Origin: a virus | Taxonomy: Duplodnaviria; Heunggongvirae; Uroviricota; Caudoviricetes | IMG/VR virus record: IMGVR_UViG_2778261121_000001 | Location: 1 to 55,913 of that record | Reading direction: 5' to 3' (one strand) | DNA: 55,913 nt | Part shown: piece by piece, positions 12,427-52,831 of the stretch | Layout: each line of letters begins with the position of its first letter | Numbering within the stretch: position 1 is the first letter of the stretch | Notes under the pieces: generated by a model | Database searches by the model: none | Seen by the model: the letters and a program-made list of their open reading frames with translations, nothing else | What the model was told of the DNA's origin: nothing | Translations under genes and position numbers: made by a program

Positions 12427-14112
12427 TCATTTAACGCGTTTGAAAACGTATACGCTGACTGTGATCCCGGTATCTTCAAACTCGTTGGTAAACGACTTCC
12501 CTTTGGCATAAACGTAATTATCCATCGTCATCCAGCTCAGGATTGGCGCAGTGCCCGGCAATACTGCTACAAGACGACCGCCGAGTTTCAGATGCCCCAG
12601 CGCAGCCAGCGTGTGCTCTCTATGACGACCAAGCGAGTACGGCGGGTTCATAACGATTTTGTCGAACTGATAACCTGCGTTGTCCTCAGACCACTTTATG
12701 AAGTCGCAGCAAATCGTGTTCGTATACCCTTTTCCACGCAGGATATCAGCGAAGAGAGGTGCGATTTCTATGCAGGTAACATCTTCCAGATCGGCGTTAA
12801 TATAGGCCAGAAGATCCCCACGTCCGGCTTGAGGCTCCAACAGCTTCTCACCAGGCTTCAATTCAGTGGCTCTTGCAACGTACTCAGCAATCAAGCGTGG
12901 GGTAGGGTAGAACTGGTGTGATTTTGTATCCGGTATTAAACCGGTAGCCACAATCGTATTTAGCGTATGGCCGATGTCATACGGGAACTGCCAGTGCTTT
13001 TTCTCCTGCACGCCGCCAATGAAGCTCAGTGTGCGCTCAAGCTCTTCCACCTGCGACTTCTGGAGAGCTGAATCAGAGAAGTACCATACGCCTTTGTCTT
13101 TGCTCAATCGCCCGTCACGAAGCGCAGTGCGAACCGGCACGGAGATCGTCTTCTGGATTAACCCGAACTGCTTTGGTGCCCGTGTTTTTGGCGCAGTTCG
13201 GCATGGCGCGGGAATTGCAGCAGGCATACTGTAAGCCAGCACCTCATTCAACTTCCAGGCCACGTCAGGATGTATTTCAAAGTGAACGTTGCCGTTCTTG
13301 AACATCTTCACGCGCATCAGATTTCCATCGACGTTCATCCAGTCACCGGTCTGGCAGTCGTTTGCCCGATACGCAGCTGATAGCACCTCAGCAGTGCGGT
13401 TGATGGTAATAAATTCTTTGTGCGCGAAGAAATGAAGCAAGACACGCAGATCGTCGATGTAGTCCTCTTTGCGATAGTTCACGCTAACGCTGTCCCGCCA
13501 GAAATCAGAAATGCAGTCAGCGATTATCAGACGCTCGCTGAAACCGTTTGTCTTATTTGTCTTGTGCGCAGGACTCAGCGCCTTAAACAAGCCATACACG
13601 CGCTCAGAGAGATATTTGTGCCTGTCATTCAGCAAATTAAGCATCGTGGGTATGACCGTTTCTGCTTTGAACTCCGGTACACCAACGAACTCTTTAACCT
13701 TCATCTGGTAGCCGGTTCTGTCAGTTTTGATGACTTCCTGTTTGCCCTCTATAAACTGCTCGCGCCACTCATCTCGACGGGAAGCTGGCATGATCAGCAA
13801 AACGTTAGTCATGTCCGTGACCTTCCTCCAGTACTCGGCCCAAATATTCTGTTTCACCCATTCCAGATCGACTTTATCCAACCAACCTCGATTTAAACGC
13901 GAGCGATCTTCATCTGGTCGATGGTTTAGTCTCAGCAGGCGATTAATCATGTTGTGGCGTTCGTCGCCATAAACGAAGTCGTGAACCTGATACATGAAGG
14001 CGATCTCTTTCTCGCACTCGGCCACAATTTCGTGGATGACGTTCATTTCCTGCCGATAGTCGATAGCAGTGTTTGAGTTGGCATCGTCGATGATGGAAAG
14101 GGCTGTATTCAT
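12427..14112 (-). CDS. DNA amino-methyltransferase (C-terminal NPPY domain) fused to a ~380-aa N-terminal domain of unknown function
   Basis: C-terminal FYPTP, LEPQAGRGDL (motif I) and NPPY (motif IV); N-terminal domain has no recognisable motif. Confidence 0.7.
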   Translation of the reverse strand: MNTALSIIDDANSNTAIDYRQEMNVIHEIVAECEKEIAFMYQVHDFVYGDERHNMINRLLRLNHRPDEDRSRLNRGWLDKVDLEWVKQNIWAEYWRKVTDMTNVLLIMPASRRDEWREQFIEGKQEVIKTDRTGYQMKVKEFVGVPEFKAETVIPTMLNLLNDRHKYLSERVYGLFKALSPAHKTNKTNGFSERLIIADCISDFWRDSVSVNYRKEDYIDDLRVLLHFFAHKEFITINRTAEVLSAAYRANDCQTGDWMNVDGNLMRVKMFKNGNVHFEIHPDVAWKLNEVLAYSMPAAIPAPCRTAPKTRAPKQFGLIQKTISVPVRTALRDGRLSKDKGVWYFSDSALQKSQVEELERTLSFIGGVQEKKHWQFPYDIGHTLNTIVATGLIPDTKSHQFYPTPRLIAEYVARATELKPGEKLLEPQAGRGDLLAYINADLEDVTCIEIAPLFADILRGKGYTNTICCDFIKWSEDNAGYQFDKIVMNPPYSLGRHREHTLAALGHLKLGGRLVAVLPGTAPILSWMTMDNYVYAKGKSFTNEFEDTGITVSVYVFKRVK

Positions 14113-14154
14113 AATTGCACCATTAAGAAGTGATTTGTTTAATGGTGCAATTAT
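14111..14154 (-). promoter_or_regulatory. perfect 16-bp inverted repeat sequestering the methyltransferase start codon
   Basis: ATAATTGCACCATTAA-N12-TTAATGGTGCAATTAT; the ATG at 14110-14112 lies at the base of the stem; no U-tract follows. Confidence 0.5.
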
Positions 14155-14215
14155 TTCAAAAATGAAAAGGTACTAAATAGAAATAAACAGGCAATCCTTC
14201 AAATAAAGGCATTGG

Positions 14216-14830
14216 CTAATCATACTTGGAGGTATTTATCACCAGAATTTTGTTTGTATAAATCTTCTTAATATCCCATGTGACATTACCGGAATACCAT
14301 TGACCGTTATATACTTGGTTTCCAGTTGCACCTGTCATTGTTACATAGACAGGTCTGTCGTAATCGGTTCGTCTATAGTTATATACTCCAACCATAGCAG
14401 GCATTACCGCACATGGATACCCCATATCTATTGTAAATTGAGGGTCAGAAATAGTGATAAGTTTCGCATCAAGGGGCATCATCTCACCGTGATACACCAT
14501 TGCGCCTGCGCTGTTATACATGGCAATGCCATAGCCAGAATGTGGTAACACCATATCAGAAAAAGCATAAACTGTTATTGTTCCGGGGCTACCATTTACC
14601 TGATGCAATCTGAGAGCATTGTATCCGTTACTATGCTCATGAATAAACATCATGTTCGCCTTATTACTGCTTTTTATGAAAAAAAAACATGATTTGTTTG
14701 ATGGGATTGATGTTTGAAAAACAGAACCTTTAGATGTAGACATTGTCCCTTTATTAATCAGATTTTGCGGAGTAAATTCTGGACTCATCCACAAACTTCC
14801 ATCTGATTGAGTAATTGACATCCCGAACAT
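14216..14830 (-). CDS. hypothetical protein (204 aa), AT-rich cassette gene 2
   Basis: ATG at 14828-14830 with GGGGA Shine-Dalgarno 2 nt after the upstream stop; visibly lower GC than its surroundings; contains a T9 tract. Confidence 0.4.
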   Translation of the reverse strand: MFGMSITQSDGSLWMSPEFTPQNLINKGTMSTSKGSVFQTSIPSNKSCFFFIKSSNKANMMFIHEHSNGYNALRLHQVNGSPGTITVYAFSDMVLPHSGYGIAMYNSAGAMVYHGEMMPLDAKLITISDPQFTIDMGYPCAVMPAMVGVYNYRRTDYDRPVYVTMTGATGNQVYNGQWYSGNVTWDIKKIYTNKILVINTSKYD

Positions 14831-14832
14831 AA

Positions 14833-15114
14833 TTATCCCCAGTATGTGTATATGTAAGAACCAAGCCCCGTATATAAATTTGACCAACTAACCGTATTTC
14901 CATTAATAGTAACATTTGGAACAGGTAAATTGATGTAGTTGTCGTTGTTAAGAGGCATTAATGACCACACGGCATGTAGTGATTTACCCGGTGGCGGATT
15001 AGAGTACGTCTTAGAGCCTGATGACGCCGTAAATCGATCAAGAAAAAAAATAGGTGTAAGGAAGCCAGTAACGTTAATTCCTTTATTGTTGTAAATCCCT
15101 GTACCGTATGCCAT
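14833..15114 (-). CDS. hypothetical protein (93 aa), AT-rich cassette gene 1
   Basis: ORF with AAGGATGA Shine-Dalgarno; AT-rich; contains a T8 tract. Confidence 0.4.
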   Translation of the reverse strand: MAYGTGIYNNKGINVTGFLTPIFFLDRFTASSGSKTYSNPPPGKSLHAVWSLMPLNNDNYINLPVPNVTINGNTVSWSNLYTGLGSYIYTYWG

Positions 15115-15168
15115 TTTTCATCCTTGTTTTTATCAACATAATATGGCCGATCATGCGGCCATATCAGA

Positions 15169-15738
15169 TCAATTAGAGCTTTGAAAGGCTTTGTGTGGTT
15201 GTGTTGCGAGGTTATGTCGATGGCTTAACTCACGCATCATGTCTTCAAGGCGACTCTTTGTGTCGTCGAGTTGGTCGGCCATTGCTCCCAAAAGCTGACG
15301 AACGGCCATCGGATCATCGCTGTTTAGTGATGGCATTTTATAACCCGCCTGAGAAGACATAAGATTGAACGCAGACATCAACATCGTTAGAGAGGATTTA
15401 AGCCCAGCAATTTCACGATCTTTGCTGGCAATAATCGCCTCACTCTTGTTAGTGTCATCAGTTCGTTGAGTCTCGCTCACCATATCCAAAGTCGCCTGCA
15501 ACTTATCAGCGCGCTCTTTTTCAGCAAGATAATGAACACCGAAATGATGTGCTAAAGCTACAACCTGAGTTGGCTCTTCAAAGGTGGACTCAAAATTAAG
15601 TGCTGTAACCACTCTCTCAAATATGGAAACGTCTTCTATTCCTCGAAGAATGGCTAACATTTTGACCAGTTCATTAGCATCCATTTCTTCGAATAAGGCG
15701 TTTTGTTCATCAGCTATCGCTTTGCATTTCTTGCACAT
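15169..15738 (-). CDS. hypothetical protein (189 aa)
   Basis: ORF in conserved start context; 5'-leader motif at 15756-15775. Confidence 0.5.
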   Translation of the reverse strand: MCKKCKAIADEQNALFEEMDANELVKMLAILRGIEDVSIFERVVTALNFESTFEEPTQVVALAHHFGVHYLAEKERADKLQATLDMVSETQRTDDTNKSEAIIASKDREIAGLKSSLTMLMSAFNLMSSQAGYKMPSLNSDDPMAVRQLLGAMADQLDDTKSRLEDMMRELSHRHNLATQPHKAFQSSN

Positions 15739-15877: not shown

Positions 15878-16036
15878 TTAACACGTTGCTTTACGGACTA
15901 GCGGATAAGCGAAGTAGATCGCCAGACCAATGAGGACGCCATCAGAAATGACAGACATCATCTTTCCCGTAAAATCCACCAACACCGCCATCACCAGAAG
16001 AGCAATGACGGTCACAAGCCGGAATCTCTCAAGCAT
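15878..16036 (-). CDS. candidate small membrane protein (52 aa)
   Basis: Translated by hand: MLERFRLVTVIALLVMAVLVDFTGKMMSVISDGVLIGLAIYFAYPLVRKATC; TAATG stop/start overlap with the TerB-like gene; below track cutoff. Confidence 0.35.
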   Translation of the reverse strand: MLERFRLVTVIALLVMAVLVDFTGKMMSVISDGVLIGLAIYFAYPLVRKATC

Positions 16037-16461
16037 TAGAGATAAGCATCCAGTGACAACTGAAGCGCCTGTGCGATCTTTTTCAGTGCCAGCTCTTCTT
16101 GTTCGCCAATACCGTCTTGGTCGGCAATATCAAGGCACAGACACAGTACATCTACTGCATCATTAGTCCCGGCCACATCAGCCAGCTCACGTAAAGCCTG
16201 GGCATTAGCGCGGCGCGGTGAGGCTTCGTATTGAGCACGGATATTGGCGCTCATTTGGGCAATCTCACCAGCAAACGGAGAAAACGCAGGCAGAGCTGCA
16301 ATTGTTTTCTCAAGAATGGAAATTTCCTTTGCGTCGCATGTGCCATCGGCATAGGAGATCATGTACGCGCCCCACACGGTGGCTTCAACCGCATCTCGGT
16401 TCTCCATTTTTTTGACCTCGATAACAGCTTTACGAGTTTTCTTTTTGAATAAACCTAACAT
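16036..16461 (-). CDS. TerB-like (tellurite-resistance TerB domain) protein
   Basis: 141 aa; resemblance to TerB judged by eye over the helical core and acidic C-terminal region; 5'-leader motif at 16484-16503. Confidence 0.5.
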   Translation of the reverse strand: MLGLFKKKTRKAVIEVKKMENRDAVEATVWGAYMISYADGTCDAKEISILEKTIAALPAFSPFAGEIAQMSANIRAQYEASPRRANAQALRELADVAGTNDAVDVLCLCLDIADQDGIGEQEELALKKIAQALQLSLDAYL

Positions 16462-18996: not shown

Positions 18997-19590
18997 CTAA
19001 GCAGCCTTCTTTGATGGTCTTTTTTTTCTGACCACATTCGCAGGATCATACCCTCCCAGACTTTTCATGACGTCCAAAGGGATCTTGCTTATAGAGTGCC
19101 CAGCGTCCTGACAGAATCCTCGAAAAACAACGAGCATACTGCCACCGGGGTTGATGTTTACTTCTACCTGACCAAAATTGACGTCAGGCTCGACAAACGC
19201 TACGCGGCCACCAGACAGAATAATCGTCTCATTCGCATACTCTGTTGCACGCTCATACCACTTTGTATCGAGGGATTGAGGAATTAGCATCACTGTTGTA
19301 ACTCCGCGAGCCTGCTCACGAATAGCCGCATCAATCCAGGGGGAGATTTTGGAGTAGGGTGGATTGAGGAAGGCAATTGTACCTGGCTGTCCCCATTCAG
19401 ATTTCAAAGCATCACGCTCAATGCCTATGAAATTAGGCAGCTTTGCGTTGTCCTTGTTGCAGGCAACGTCAACATCAAATGTCACTCCAAGATAACGTTG
19501 AATGGCAGAAAACAGCCAATCAGGTGTTCTCCAGAGGTCACGAAGAGAGTTGTCGCGCTTTCGCTGTTTGATTTTTTCGGCTGCAATCAT
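18997..19590 (-). CDS. phage Dam-type DNA N6-adenine methyltransferase
   Basis: 197 aa with NPPY motif; palindromic operator-like motif 10 nt upstream of the start. Confidence 0.75.
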   Translation of the reverse strand: MIAAEKIKQRKRDNSLRDLWRTPDWLFSAIQRYLGVTFDVDVACNKDNAKLPNFIGIERDALKSEWGQPGTIAFLNPPYSKISPWIDAAIREQARGVTTVMLIPQSLDTKWYERATEYANETIILSGGRVAFVEPDVNFGQVEVNINPGGSMLVVFRGFCQDAGHSISKIPLDVMKSLGGYDPANVVRKKRPSKKAA

Positions 19591-49391: not shown

Positions 49392-50627
49392 TTAACCAAA
49401 TATTTTTTGAACAACTTCACGAGCTGCTTGTGCAGAAGCTGAAGGGAGTTTGTTAATGAAAGAACGCTCAATACCTGTCACAAAGTCGCCTCTCATCATT
49501 CCAATCTTGGCCGACAACAAAAGCTCACGAGGCCCAATCGGTTGGCTGATGTTGTGTTCTTCGTATCCATCGCGAACGATACCGGCAAACTTAACCATCT
49601 TTTCAGCGTATTCATCCACGATGCCAGCATTTATCAACATGTTGATCTCTGCCTCTTTGCTCATGTATTTCACATTCGAAACGATGCCAAAACGCGAAAA
49701 GTTCGCGGCGTTCTGGATGTTTGTACCCTGGTACAAGCCGGTTTCATCACCAGATCCGTTCGTGTTGCCAGTGCCAATGAAAGCAAACCGTTCATGCGGA
49801 GTAATGCGACGCCATTCTGGAGTCGCCTCTTTGATGACCAACGCTTCACCTTCCAGCACTGGCTGATACACGCCAAGAATTTGTGGAAACGCAAAGTCGT
49901 ATTCATCCGCGAGGTAAACCCAGCCATGCTTCATTGCGAGCGCAAGCAAGCCAGGTTCGAAATACGTAGAGCCATCACGCGCCAGAATTTGCCCCGTAAC
50001 ATGTGCCTCTTCCATTGATGCTGTATGTTGGGCACGGATCAACGGACGATTGAGCAAAGCACATAGCTGTGTAGGCAATGACGATTTGCCTGTTCCTGCA
50101 TGACCCCACAAATAGCCAGGTATGCCAAGTTCAAGCATCATGAAAATATCTTTGATCAGTTCGAAGTTGCCATATACGTAGCCTTTCTTCACTTCGGGAA
50201 CGAACTCTGGATACGGCGTATTGACGTTGACGCTAACCATGAGCGGCGTCCCACGTTTTGTTCCGAGTTCTTCCACCGTTACGTTTAGCAGTTCGTGAGC
50301 TGCGACCAGATCTGTCTTGTACTCAACTGTGCCTGTGTAGCCAGGGCTACTGGTCAAGCCAGAAGATTTGGCCATTTCGCTTTTTTGCTCGGCACGTTTA
50401 GCTTGAATTGCATCAAGTGCCTTTTTCGATAGCGTTGGCTCATCTGGAAACTGCGTTGTGTACATTTTCAGTACGGTGTCAGGATCGGCATCTTTTACTG
50501 ACTCAGGAATGCCCTCGCAATTACCATTGGCTACATGGGACTTAAAATAGTGAAATGATTTGCCGCACCACTTGCAAACAAGGTAATCAGAATGATTTTT
50601 TTCATTTTGCAGTGCAGTAGTCGTCAT
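49392..50627 (-). CDS. AAA+ ATPase (MoxR/CobS-like) with N-terminal zinc ribbon
   Basis: Walker A GHAGTGKS, Walker B YLADEYD, N-terminal CKWCGK...C. Confidence 0.7.
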   Translation of the reverse strand: MTTTALQNEKNHSDYLVCKWCGKSFHYFKSHVANGNCEGIPESVKDADPDTVLKMYTTQFPDEPTLSKKALDAIQAKRAEQKSEMAKSSGLTSSPGYTGTVEYKTDLVAAHELLNVTVEELGTKRGTPLMVSVNVNTPYPEFVPEVKKGYVYGNFELIKDIFMMLELGIPGYLWGHAGTGKSSLPTQLCALLNRPLIRAQHTASMEEAHVTGQILARDGSTYFEPGLLALAMKHGWVYLADEYDFAFPQILGVYQPVLEGEALVIKEATPEWRRITPHERFAFIGTGNTNGSGDETGLYQGTNIQNAANFSRFGIVSNVKYMSKEAEINMLINAGIVDEYAEKMVKFAGIVRDGYEEHNISQPIGPRELLLSAKIGMMRGDFVTGIERSFINKLPSASAQAAREVVQKIFG

Positions 50628-50722
50628 GCGTTTTTCCTTTGTTCTCTAATGAGCGTTCAACTTCTTATATAAATATACCATTAACTATCGTAAGTGGTTA
50701 CTTATCATTAAGGCTGTTTTAT

Positions 50723-52831
50723 TCAATTCAAAATGATACGAGATAGTTCAGTAACTACAGATGAACCAAGACTATCAACGCTCGTTACCAGGGCATGATT
50801 TGAGTAAAATCTCTCCGGTGCGTCAGTCATGATGCCAATTGCCATCAAATCAATGTCAGTCTGCGTTTCAATTTGCTTCGCAACCGAACGCAAATGAGCG
50901 TCAAAACCTCTCCCAACAGCCCACGGCGCGCCATCGCTCAGAACAAGCATGATCTTCCTGTCCTCCAAGCGACCGGAAAATAACGATGCAAGGCTGGCTA
51001 TGCTTTCACCATCCACGTTATTAAGAAGTGGGAATGTGTAGCCTACGCACCCCATACGTGAGCGAACTTCGCGAGAATTTACCTTTTCATTCCAATTTTT
51101 GATGATAGGTAGCATTAAAGATTCAAAGCGAGAGAACTCATACTTGACAGCCTTAAGTTCTCCTGCCGCCATATGACTACCAAATGTAGTGAAGCCGGTG
51201 ATAATGTTGGGAACATTTATTCGATCAAGGGCATCGGCGATGGTATATGCACTTGCAAGAGCCAATTGTATCGTTATACCACTCATTGAACCTGATAAAT
51301 CAATCACTTGTTGAACACAGGCGTTAACGGCTTTAGATTCTTCTTTTTTACGAAACACGCGATCATCATTCATTGCTAATCTGTAGATACTAGAACCATG
51401 AATGCGCCCCCGACGCTGGCCCGGTATAAACTGAACTCTGTTTCTGCTTGCTATTGCACGTTCCAGGTCTTTTGCTAGCGTCGACGAAACACCTGACGAA
51501 AGATGCTTTTCAATATATTTGTCGAAGAGCTGGTTGCCTTCAGGAACGATGCGATAGCGGCTGATTGGATATCCTCCTAAATCAATATCGGAGAATGTTT
51601 TAATAAGCCGTTTGATATGGGCTTCTGCCTGATCAATCGAGCCGATGAAGTCGTATGAGCGATTGTATGGCCTGTATTCGCTTTTCGAGCTTTCTGTTAA
51701 CTCGCTTTTAATCGTTTCGGATAGAGCATCTTCTGTCATGCCTCCGACTTCATCTTCTATGCTATCCAGCTCCTCTAAAGCCTCTTCCAGACTCATTTTT
51801 GACGGAGTTGGAATATCTGAAGAGCCGTCTTCTGTCGTTTTTCTTTTTTCGTGGTCAGCGGTTAATGATTCTGACGCCGCGTTATCAGAAGCACCAGAAT
51901 CTGATACCTCTTTATCATTTTCTGTATCATCGAATATTGTTTCTGATGATTCAGAATTATCTGAATCATCACTGTCGTTATTATCATGTTTGTGCTTACT
52001 ATGTGATTCTGATTTGATAGATTTGTGATTATCTAACGCTGAGGGTGTCTCATGATCTTCGTTATCTTCATTATTTTCTCCAGAGGCATCCGTCTGGTCA
52101 GCGTCTGAAGGATCGGAAGTTTTTCCCGGAGCTGACTCCTTACCTTTGCTTTCACTTTCAGTGTCTTTGAGGATCTTAGCTATGGTCGCAGCCACCTTTA
52201 CACAATCCTCGGTGCAAGACATGTTACGCACGGCCACATCGATACCATGTTCTTTTAATAATGAAATTGGTTTCTCAATGACAGGCCAATATTCATCCAT
52301 GAAATCTACGAACGGTGCTTGGCCATCCCAGGCTCTTACAACCGGACAGAGAAAGAAGTTTAGAAAAAGCGCGCGCTGATCTTTGCCACAATAAGCAATA
52401 GCCTCTGAAGCCTTTGGTTTAAAGACTTTTTCGATTATAAGGCGCTGAGTTGCCATCAGATTACGTCTTGTTCCGTTAAAGACCTGACCCATTTTTCGCT
52501 CGATGAACACGTCTTCTAAGGCATTCCATAGCGACCAGGAAGGAACGCGTCCTTTTTCTCTCATTTTGTTGGACACACGAATATCGGTAAACAAAATGTG
52601 AGCAACCTCATGATCGAGAAATCCGCGCACAGCATTCATCAATGCCGGTGTTGCGTTATCCGGGATTGATGGGATGTTTACGAGAATTGGCTCTCCATCA
52701 TCGTTATAGCGTACATAAGCGTCGTCCCCTCGTTCTGCAACAGGGATGTTTTTACCTGAAAGGAGAGCGACTACTCGTTTTACACTGTCACGGAAGTCCT
52801 GAACCTCTTTGATGGAACGTTTTTTAGACAT
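50723..52831 (-). CDS. von Willebrand factor A protein with long acidic Ser/Asp-rich linker (CobT-like)
   Basis: C-terminal MIDAS motif DLSGSMSG; central acidic low-complexity region. Confidence 0.65.
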   Translation of the reverse strand: MSKKRSIKEVQDFRDSVKRVVALLSGKNIPVAERGDDAYVRYNDDGEPILVNIPSIPDNATPALMNAVRGFLDHEVAHILFTDIRVSNKMREKGRVPSWSLWNALEDVFIERKMGQVFNGTRRNLMATQRLIIEKVFKPKASEAIAYCGKDQRALFLNFFLCPVVRAWDGQAPFVDFMDEYWPVIEKPISLLKEHGIDVAVRNMSCTEDCVKVAATIAKILKDTESESKGKESAPGKTSDPSDADQTDASGENNEDNEDHETPSALDNHKSIKSESHSKHKHDNNDSDDSDNSESSETIFDDTENDKEVSDSGASDNAASESLTADHEKRKTTEDGSSDIPTPSKMSLEEALEELDSIEDEVGGMTEDALSETIKSELTESSKSEYRPYNRSYDFIGSIDQAEAHIKRLIKTFSDIDLGGYPISRYRIVPEGNQLFDKYIEKHLSSGVSSTLAKDLERAIASRNRVQFIPGQRRGRIHGSSIYRLAMNDDRVFRKKEESKAVNACVQQVIDLSGSMSGITIQLALASAYTIADALDRINVPNIITGFTTFGSHMAAGELKAVKYEFSRFESLMLPIIKNWNEKVNSREVRSRMGCVGYTFPLLNNVDGESIASLASLFSGRLEDRKIMLVLSDGAPWAVGRGFDAHLRSVAKQIETQTDIDLMAIGIMTDAPERFYSNHALVTSVDSLGSSVVTELSRIILN

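Follow-up and report, generated by a model that had tools for sequence, protein, structure and literature searches.

A probable tail-tip receptor-binding gene pair far from the tail genes of an Escherichia coli phage-plasmid

Two small, AT-rich genes lie between a DNA methyltransferase gene and early genes in a 55,913-nucleotide stretch of viral DNA (IMG/VR record IMGVR_UViG_2778261121_000001, positions 1 to 55,913; hereafter the window), and the question that they raise is what such a pair does in such a place. The answer reached here is that the cassette (14216-15114) is probably a horizontally acquired, two-gene tail-tip receptor-binding module of an E. coli phage-plasmid, obtained from small coliphages and placed a long way from the tail genes. 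Between positions 13000 and 16500 the window matches Escherichia phage Cyrano, phage CMS-2020a and numerous non-mobilizable E. coli and Shigella plasmids of some 110 kb at 98-99.5% identity. Within the same segment, the match to Salmonella phage SSU5 and its Klebsiella and Enterobacter relatives is limited to the methyltransferase part, and the megablast alignment with SSU5 stops at 14127. The near-identity to Cyrano and the plasmids, together with the methyltransferase match to SSU5, indicates that the window derives from an SSU5-family phage-plasmid of E. coli. Its content is the replication and early half of the element, and it contains no tail genes. The features on which the argument rests are the following.

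14833..15114, minus strand: small gene, 93 amino acids; ATG at 15114, stop codon TAA at 14835-14833; no signal peptide; predicted single beta-sandwich
14216..14830, minus strand: large gene, 204 amino acids; ATG at 14830, stop at 14216; predicted all-beta with two sandwich domains; residues 146-193 hypervariable
14194..15185 (approximate), no strand assigned: DNA foreign relative to SSU5 and pJN2-26, delimited by alignment of both junctions

Identity of the gene pair

The preliminary description of this DNA had noted a GC content below that of the neighbouring genes, and computation bears this out. GC is 38.4% across 14216-15114 and 46.0% across the whole window (standard deviation of 899-bp windows, 2.9%), which places the cassette within the lowest 1%; the minimum-GC stretch of the entire window is 14091-14989. 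GC at third codon positions is 0.36 in both cassette genes, compared with 0.59 in the adjoining methyltransferase gene. As the module is also low in GC elsewhere (38.5% in phage JenP1, about 42% in Shiga toxin (Stx) and T1-like phages), AT-richness is a property of the module itself, and it marks the foreign origin of the module. The claim that the pair was inserted between the DUF4942 methyltransferase gene and the early genes upstream was also upheld. In SSU5 and in Klebsiella pJN2-26 the next gene after the methyltransferase gene is the homologue of a 189-amino-acid gene, with no cassette between, and the extra DNA of the window (about 14194-15185) occupies the site of a GC-rich terminator (GGGGGCTTTCGCCCCC) found in both.

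The two genes had been described as adjacent and unknown. They are adjacent: the stop codon of the small gene and the ATG of the large gene are separated by 2 nt, and the open reading frames (ORFs) lie in different frames. They are not unknown, as profile searches assign the small protein to PHROG 557 (E 6e-29; residues 1-93 against positions 1-92 of 100) and the large protein to PHROG 425 (E 2e-72; residues 1-204 against positions 3-224 of 224). Both proteins were also scanned against Pfam, NCBIfam and PADLOC, with no useful match and just a sub-threshold one to DUF6453, and no homologue of either family turned up in profile searches of the whole PDB sequence set. The search for the pair in other elements, proposed in the preliminary description, was more productive. 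By tblastn the pair was found in four other settings (Nonagvirus, Stx, T1-like and Dhillonvirus phages), in addition to the SSU5 family, and always in the order small to large and tightly coupled, with gaps of 2 nt here, 2 in JenP1, 5 in ArgO145, 2 in tonn and 1 in PTXU06. The amino-acid motifs of the pair are conserved across four phage groups. By sequence comparison, the gene pair is homologous to a pair in the receptor-specificity locus of small siphoviruses.

A single gene broken by a frameshift, or a programmed frameshift, was considered and rejected: the homologues in five phage groups are two separate ORFs, with spacers that differ, and a whole protein is covered by each PHROG. Some PLSDB records, in which only two hypothetical proteins are listed, gave the impression of pseudogene calls; this too was rejected, as the 93-amino-acid ORF is intact in them and the extra base lies in the 5' leader.

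The closest relatives outside phage-plasmids are gp21-gp22 of the Nonagvirus phages JenP1, JenP2 and BRET, with 78-79% nucleotide identity and 83% and 76% amino-acid identity. As in the window, JenP1 has no adjacent superinfection-exclusion protein. Unlike the present element, JenP1 is a virulent 60-kb siphovirus in which gp22/gp21 come directly after the J gene, on the opposite strand. JenP1-type Nonagvirus phages are the likely donor pool. Short-tailed Stx phages (933W; Sp5 ORF72/ORF73, i.e. ECs1234/ECs1235; ArgO145 gp53/gp52) carry proteins with 61% and 63% amino-acid identity to the pair (58% in the variable segment), and in ArgO145 and Sp5 the pair follows a 422-residue protein with a Phage_Tail_Tip domain; these copies differ in their podovirus context, in lying on the late-gene strand and in having lom downstream. 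The T1-like Warwickvirus/Hanrivervirus phages (tonn gp65-67) have the same families in the order small to large, with 50% (small) and 40% (large) identity over the full length and the same phenylalanine-run motifs; in these phages the pair lies immediately beside J, with the gene of a Cor-like lipoprotein (LTGC lipobox) ahead of it, whereas here it lies about 60 kb from J without a lipoprotein. Dhillonvirus PTXU06 has the same trio of lipoprotein, small and large genes beside J, and its large protein is 44% identical to that of the window.

In small siphoviruses, the hypervariable locus downstream of gpJ tracks the terminal receptor (FhuA, BtuB, LptD or YncD) without exception, and it has been described as a receptor-binding protein (RBP) accompanied by either one accessory protein or two, and by a superinfection-exclusion factor (PMC8594841; 10.64898/2026.04.02.716166). 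The tonn-type locus was found in FritzSarasin (Bas04; bas04_0023-0025), KarlJaspers (Bas06) and JK16; the tonn locus DNA is 96.8% identical to the Bas04 locus and 99.7% identical to the JK16 locus. Bas04, Bas06 and JK16 are all BtuB-dependent (supplements of PMC8594841 and 10.64898/2026.04.02.716166). Membership of the BtuB-specific RBP family has been defined as more than 30% identity with more than 99% coverage to validated members (10.64898/2026.04.02.716166), and the large protein falls within this definition, with 40.5% identity to tonn over 204 of 204 residues. BtuB is therefore our best family-level guess for the receptor, made from sequence relationships, and another outer-membrane protein is quite possible. 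The literature was searched for the receptor of Cyrano, PhiR41_1, JenP1 or the E. coli SSU5-like phages and none was found, and the RBP gene identifiers of the preprint (e.g. DBIMPIMR_CDS_0022) could not be mapped onto the 204-amino-acid gene.

Phages with other receptors show how the locus varies. FhuA-dependent JLBYU41 has a pair of 101 and 212 residues from the same two PHROGs (557 and 425), plus Cor. YncD-dependent IsaakIselin has a pair of 101 and 217 residues from other PHROGs, plus a secreted protein, and LptD phages have a single RBP of 311-320 residues (PHROG 1265) plus a lipoprotein. An RBP encoded at a distance has a parallel in T5, where pb5 is a dedicated RBP, sits non-covalently on the central fibre tip and is encoded away from other tail genes (PMC8594841); pb5 (oad) differs in being unrelated to the pair, in its length of about 640 residues and in its adjacent superinfection-exclusion lipoprotein (Llp).

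An AlphaFold model of the 204-residue protein is confident and all-beta (predicted local distance difference test score, pLDDT, 92.3; predicted template modelling score, pTM, 0.87), and the modelled fold matches the soluble beta-sandwich of the demonstrated, solved RBP of this locus. The large protein is thus probably a two-domain beta-sandwich RBP and the 93-residue protein its small beta-sandwich partner. The solved type is represented by the LptD-binding RBPs of Oekolampad, RTP and OzMSK (PHROG 1265; PDB 9rpt; lipoprotein Rtp45), which differ from the pair in being one chain of 311-320 residues rather than chains of 93 and 204, and which have no significant sequence similarity to it (hhalign probability 2.5%). 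A weak profile cross-match aligns residues 40-156 of the 204-residue protein with positions 158-287 of 332 in PHROG 1265, and hhalign places the GYGIAMYNSAG motif at residue 210 of the OzMSK RBP. These offsets imply that the single-chain RBP is longer at the N-terminus by about 110 residues, which approximates the length of the small protein, and the combined size (297 against about 315 residues) suggests that the pair may be a split version of a single-chain LptD-type RBP.

The small and large families, compared by hhalign, match only at a 14-column YG..YN..G motif. The motif [YF]-G-x-x-x-[YWF]-[ND]-x-x-G recurs in the pair, N-terminally in each protein and once more midway along the large one (GYGIAMYNSAG); FhuA-, YncD- and LptD-type locus proteins have it as well. 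The sequences hint that the locus proteins may all be built from one repeated beta-hairpin/sandwich unit. Some phage proteins of about 95 residues in BFVD superpose on one domain of the 204-residue model.

Database entries name these proteins 'outer membrane protein' or 'membrane associated protein', and a rival explanation follows from these names: that the proteins act in lysogenic conversion as membrane proteins like Lom. The PHROG and RefSeq product names, and the presence of lom nearby in Stx phages, speak for it. However, no signal peptide, lipobox or transmembrane or hydrophobic segment was found in either protein; the maximum Kyte-Doolittle hydropathy over 19 residues is 0.94 and 1.1 in the pair, compared with 1.6-1.8 in the true lipoproteins of these loci. 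The names are unsupported for this reason, and with a modelled soluble fold that matches a solved RBP, membrane proteins of this kind are extremely unlikely.

Module placement and the J protein

In SSU5, the corresponding genes are found in the tail operon. SSU5_023 (84 residues), SSU5_024 and Cor lie between the tail fibre adhesin and holin genes; SSU5_023 is 30% identical to the 93-residue protein (PHROG 557, E 8e-22), SSU5_024 is 27% identical to the 204-residue protein (PHROG 425, E 1e-49), and Cor is genuine (NCBIfam equivalog, E 6e-22) and points to FhuA. The SSU5 module is thus like that of the window in phage-plasmid family, in its two PHROGs and in number (one module per genome), and unlike it in its distant sequence, tail-operon position and Cor partner. 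The start annotated for SSU5_024 (12653) probably lies 42 nt downstream of the true one, with homology to the 204-residue family beginning at 12611, right after the SSU5_023 stop (12611-13219). In Cyrano (98% identity to the window), holin comes immediately after the tail fibre gene. The whole Cyrano-equivalent genome was searched by tblastn with all module proteins and with three superinfection-exclusion proteins; the pair of the window was the only match, and there was no Cor.

The two types of module partition the family. Of the PLSDB plasmids, about 246 have a module. In 119, all from E. coli, Shigella or E. marmotae, it is the window-type allele (identity of 80% or more). In 51, from Enterobacter, Salmonella and Citrobacter, it is the SSU5 allele (identity of 99% or more), and 73 from E. 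coli have a variant with 75% identity to the SSU5 allele. The SSU5 type, this variant included, is counted in about 126. Because both searches give almost one record set, the window and SSU5 alleles are complementary; three records (CP099126.1, NZ_CP146383.1 and CP058914.1) have two matching places and may carry both. Conservation of the pair as core genes of related phage-plasmids, which the preliminary description had named as the outcome contrary to its own proposal, was therefore found in part: SSU5-type relatives have a distant homologous pair, at another locus and mutually exclusive with this one. The explanation that fits best is that the module was replaced non-orthologously in the E. 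coli lineage, where it stands in for SSU5_023/SSU5_024/Cor.

A tail-tip module would need a docking platform, and the J protein is the candidate. Cyrano J ends in a Phage_Tail_Tip domain (E 1e-41) and is 38% identical to the C-terminus of JenP1 J and 44% to that of IsaakIselin. Over the final 189 residues of Cyrano J, about 265 PLSDB plasmids match at 80% identity or more, a number close to the 246 with a module, and the sampled J matches below 80% mostly align only to about residue 157 of these 189. A module match is absent from Yersinia (pMT1-type) SSU5-like records and present in 2 Klebsiella records and in 6 of 58 Salmonella records. In the module-less Yersinia, Klebsiella and Salmonella (pHCM2-like) records that were sampled, J lacks similarity over the last ~32 residues. 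Individual cross-checks were made for NZ_CP047004, NZ_CP032183 and NC_008120; otherwise the argument linking J to the module is one of genus-level counts. Co-variation of the J C-terminus with the module allele was considered and rejected, as the SSU5-type J tip is about 90% identical to that of Cyrano despite the differing alleles; what co-varies with the extreme C-terminus of J is the presence or absence of a module only.

The receptor-binding reading is the best fit to the occurrence of one module per genome, the two alternative loci, a particular J tip and a fold like that of a solved RBP. The direct evidence consists of homology, fold, synteny elsewhere, the single-copy complementary distribution and the absence of secretion signals, and from it we infer incorporation into the virion, docking on J, receptor binding, the identity of the receptor and the timing of expression. 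During lytic growth the cell would produce both proteins in its cytoplasm, with their translation probably coupled given the 2-nt distance from stop to ATG. The variable C-terminal part of the large protein would then bind an E. coli outer-membrane protein, and this binding would commit the phage to irreversible adsorption.

Several observations weigh against this reading. The pair is not beside the tail-tip gene: in Cyrano, J lies at 17.7-22.4 kb and the pair at 81.9-82.8 kb, about 60 kb apart. It lies within a leftward early/accessory block (RNase H, TerB, methyltransferase, Ea22-like), which is odd for a late structural role, and the cognate superinfection-exclusion lipoprotein is absent, with no Cor-like ORF adjoining the pair. 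The matching of J tip and module is loose, since the SSU5 J tip appears Cyrano-like yet accompanies a very different allele; the SSU5 J C-terminus appears to be 80-95% identical to that of Cyrano (two phage records, not individually confirmed as SSU5, in the 80-90% band; SSU5-type plasmids at 90.5%). The large protein shares 50% identity with the BtuB-validated tonn type over residues 1-145 and 8% over residues 146-193, so the receptor may differ from BtuB; in the latter segment its identity is 85% with JenP1 and 58% with Stx phages. That the BtuB-type allele itself encodes an RBP is supported by correlation and AlphaFold3 models, not biochemistry (10.64898/2026.04.02.716166). Finally, in-frame deletions were made in Sp5 ORF72 (92 residues) and ORF73 (205 residues), and neither gene is among the nine needed for plaques or lysogeny on K-12 (PMC5155283), which implies that the module is dispensable at least in that podovirus.

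The Sp5 result and the location among early and accessory genes, far from the tail operon, would also be expected if the cassette were a dispensable accessory pair (a moron), borne by recombination and related to RBPs, with no role in adsorption here or acting as an auxiliary host-range extender on some hosts. Disrupted alleles in public assemblies (frameshifts at a homopolymer, an in-frame deletion of 8 residues and a truncated variant of 160 residues) are compatible with this explanation as well. However, the ORFs are intact in 34 of 37 and 33 of 37 copies, the exceptions being cut by contig ends, plus one in-frame deletion; the amino-acid motifs have been kept in four phage groups; and there is one module per genome, distributed in a manner complementary to the SSU5-type module of the tail operon. 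A purely accessory pair is accordingly possible but rather unlikely.

The same location, beside methyltransferase and TerB-like genes, could suit a decoy: RBP-like proteins that poison tail-tip assembly in superinfecting T1-like phages or nonagviruses, or that, once lysis has occurred, cover the receptor of nearby cells. The high identity to the proteins of virulent JenP1 and the absence of a partner superinfection-exclusion lipoprotein agree with this. We know of no precedent for a decoy made of RBP-like proteins; cytoplasmic proteins could not reach the receptor before lysis, and the complementarity with the tail-operon module favours a structural role. Interference of this type is considered quite improbable.

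If the receptor-binding reading is correct, the cassette is a known kind of host-recognition module in an unusual place, useful for host-range prediction and involving no new mechanism. SSU5-like phage-plasmids of E. coli are widespread: PLSDB plasmids of human, livestock and environmental origin contain more than 100 near-identical copies of the cassette. Relatives of these phage-plasmids carry resistance genes (PMC9600943). Genes that set the terminal receptor would provide a handle on the host range of such phage-plasmids, i.e. on which strains are infected or lysogenised and which receptor mutations block infection. The distribution also implies that a receptor-specificity module travels among virulent siphoviruses, Stx podoviruses and phage-plasmids, and that it can function, or at least persist, when unlinked from the tail operon; receptor-prediction tools restricted to the region downstream of gpJ should allow for unlinked modules. 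Misleading database names ('outer membrane protein', 'membrane associated protein' and 'moron') would also be corrected.

Homopolymer tracts

The preliminary description had drawn attention to two homopolymers within the genes and had proposed that they permit slipped-strand on/off switching.

15043..15050, minus strand: T8 tract (A8 on the plus strand), codons 22-24 of the small gene, encoding P-I-F-F-L-D
14679..14687, minus strand: T9 tract (A9 on the plus strand), codons 48-51 of the large gene, encoding C-F-F-F

Both tracts are present, and they are unusual for the window: of its three tracts of at least 8 nt, two fall inside the 899-bp cassette, where about 0.05 would be expected for such a segment. 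The third is a T8 on the plus strand at 19020-19027. Switching as a conserved feature was not borne out, although slippage may occur rarely. T8 encodes a conserved P-I/V-F-F-L-D and T9 a conserved C-F-F-F, and homologues mostly spell both with interrupted runs, which reach no more than 7 nt in JenP1, the Stx phages and tonn. T9 is replaced by C TTTTT C TTC (two synonymous changes) in 19 of 22 close copies and is uninterrupted in 2 of 35 copies of a second set; beyond this window and Cyrano, only a few contigs have an uninterrupted T9. All close copies that were read have T8, as does, by coincidence, PTXU06. A pattern scan that tolerated tract lengths of 5-11 nt found T8, in frame, in 36 of 36 metagenome and IMG/VR contigs, with the ORFs intact where the contig allowed.

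Shortened tracts were nevertheless encountered. Two 51-residue products in the protein database (P0039 and P0040) are exact T8-to-T7 frameshifts. The T8-to-T7 change was found in three allelic backgrounds among Logan and NCBI assemblies, and T9 was shortened to T7 in two contigs (L037 and L039). The tract variants are exclusively deletions, and two contigs carry further indels outside homopolymers, so homopolymer sequencing error is inseparable from slippage; systematic undercalling is as likely an explanation of the T7 alleles as biology. Four T7 contigs (in a 19-21-mismatch background) lack the extra leader A of their close allelic relatives, which also has the appearance of undercalling. 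Other variants were also seen: a T8-to-T7 frameshift restored 16 codons later (P0030), an in-frame deletion of 8 residues in the small protein (P0028, from L064), and a 160-residue variant of the large protein that diverges after GYGI, on a 114-kb contig (P0014).

A phase-variable cassette switched by slippage at T8 and T9, possibly for phage exclusion, would explain the concentration of tracts, the conservation of T8 at the nucleotide level in all close copies and the recurrence of T7 alleles at both sites. The tracts encode conserved phenylalanine runs, however, which are interrupted in homologues; T9 is broken in most relatives, T8 was in frame in all 36 contigs, and the deletion-only variants resemble homopolymer undercalling. 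The suggestion of phage exclusion itself found no support: PADLOC-DB had no match for either protein or for the upstream 189-residue protein, and no secretion signal or lipobox was found in the pair. This explanation is considered very unlikely. A narrower version, highly doubtful in our estimation, retains the receptor-binding function and makes T8 alone a slippage hotspot that switches the module off, and perhaps on again, during prolonged replication in the plasmid state, which would give particles with and without the terminal receptor-binding proteins. The T7 alleles in three backgrounds and the one apparently frame-restored allele are compatible with it. If true, slippage at T8 would amount to heritable host-range phase variation in a phage-plasmid.

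Flanking hairpins and neighbouring genes

The cassette had also been described as flanked by inverted repeats (14111-14154 and 15141-15165). These exist, and stable folding was computed for both on the transcribed strand.

14111..14154, minus strand: left hairpin, in the methyltransferase leader; 16-nt arms 14111-14126 and 14139-14154, 100% complementary; -20.6 kcal/mol, z score -6.1
15141..15164, minus strand: right hairpin, between the stop of the 189-amino-acid gene (15169) and the small-gene start; 9-nt arms 15141-15149 and 15156-15164, 100% complementary; -18.8 kcal/mol, z score -4.05

A role as the ends of the cassette did not stand. The arms of the left and right hairpins are unrelated in sequence, and the left hairpin region aligns with cassette-free SSU5 and pJN2-26 and is thus backbone, albeit with a less complementary second arm there. 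The two are therefore separate local hairpins rather than cassette termini. An IS/MITE-like mobile cassette (an insertion sequence or miniature inverted-repeat transposable element) was rejected for a similar reason, and also because there is no flanking direct repeat and no adjacent recombinase gene. An Rfam scan of the region gave no match.

Each hairpin may have a local function. The 3' arm of the left hairpin takes in a Shine-Dalgarno-like GGTG and reaches two bases into the ATG of the DUF4942 DNA methyltransferase (start 14112), and the hairpin may occlude methyltransferase translation or serve as an operator. The right hairpin lies at the right edge of the insert, where SSU5 and pJN2-26 have their terminator instead, and is probably a terminator or an operator; it could serve the 189-amino-acid gene in the first case and the gene pair in the second. 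A sigma-70-like site (CTGATA-18-TATTAT, 15167-15138, minus strand) straddles the right palindrome, a short way upstream of the small gene. At 15127-15131 the window reads A5, compared with A6 in most relatives.

Two further groups of genes were recorded. Genes for a TerB-family protein (141 residues) and a DUF3927 protein (52 residues) lie at 15878-16461 on the minus strand and are annotated in Cyrano as P1 TciA/TciB-like; SSU5 has an Ant anti-repressor gene at the corresponding position. At 49392-52831, on the minus strand of the same element, are genes for CobT (CobT and CobT_C VWA domains, E 7e-82) and an AAA_5 CobS-like ATPase. The occurrence of CobT/CobS-like genes alongside a module with relatives specific for the cobalamin receptor (BtuB) is probably a coincidence, phage CobST pairs being common.

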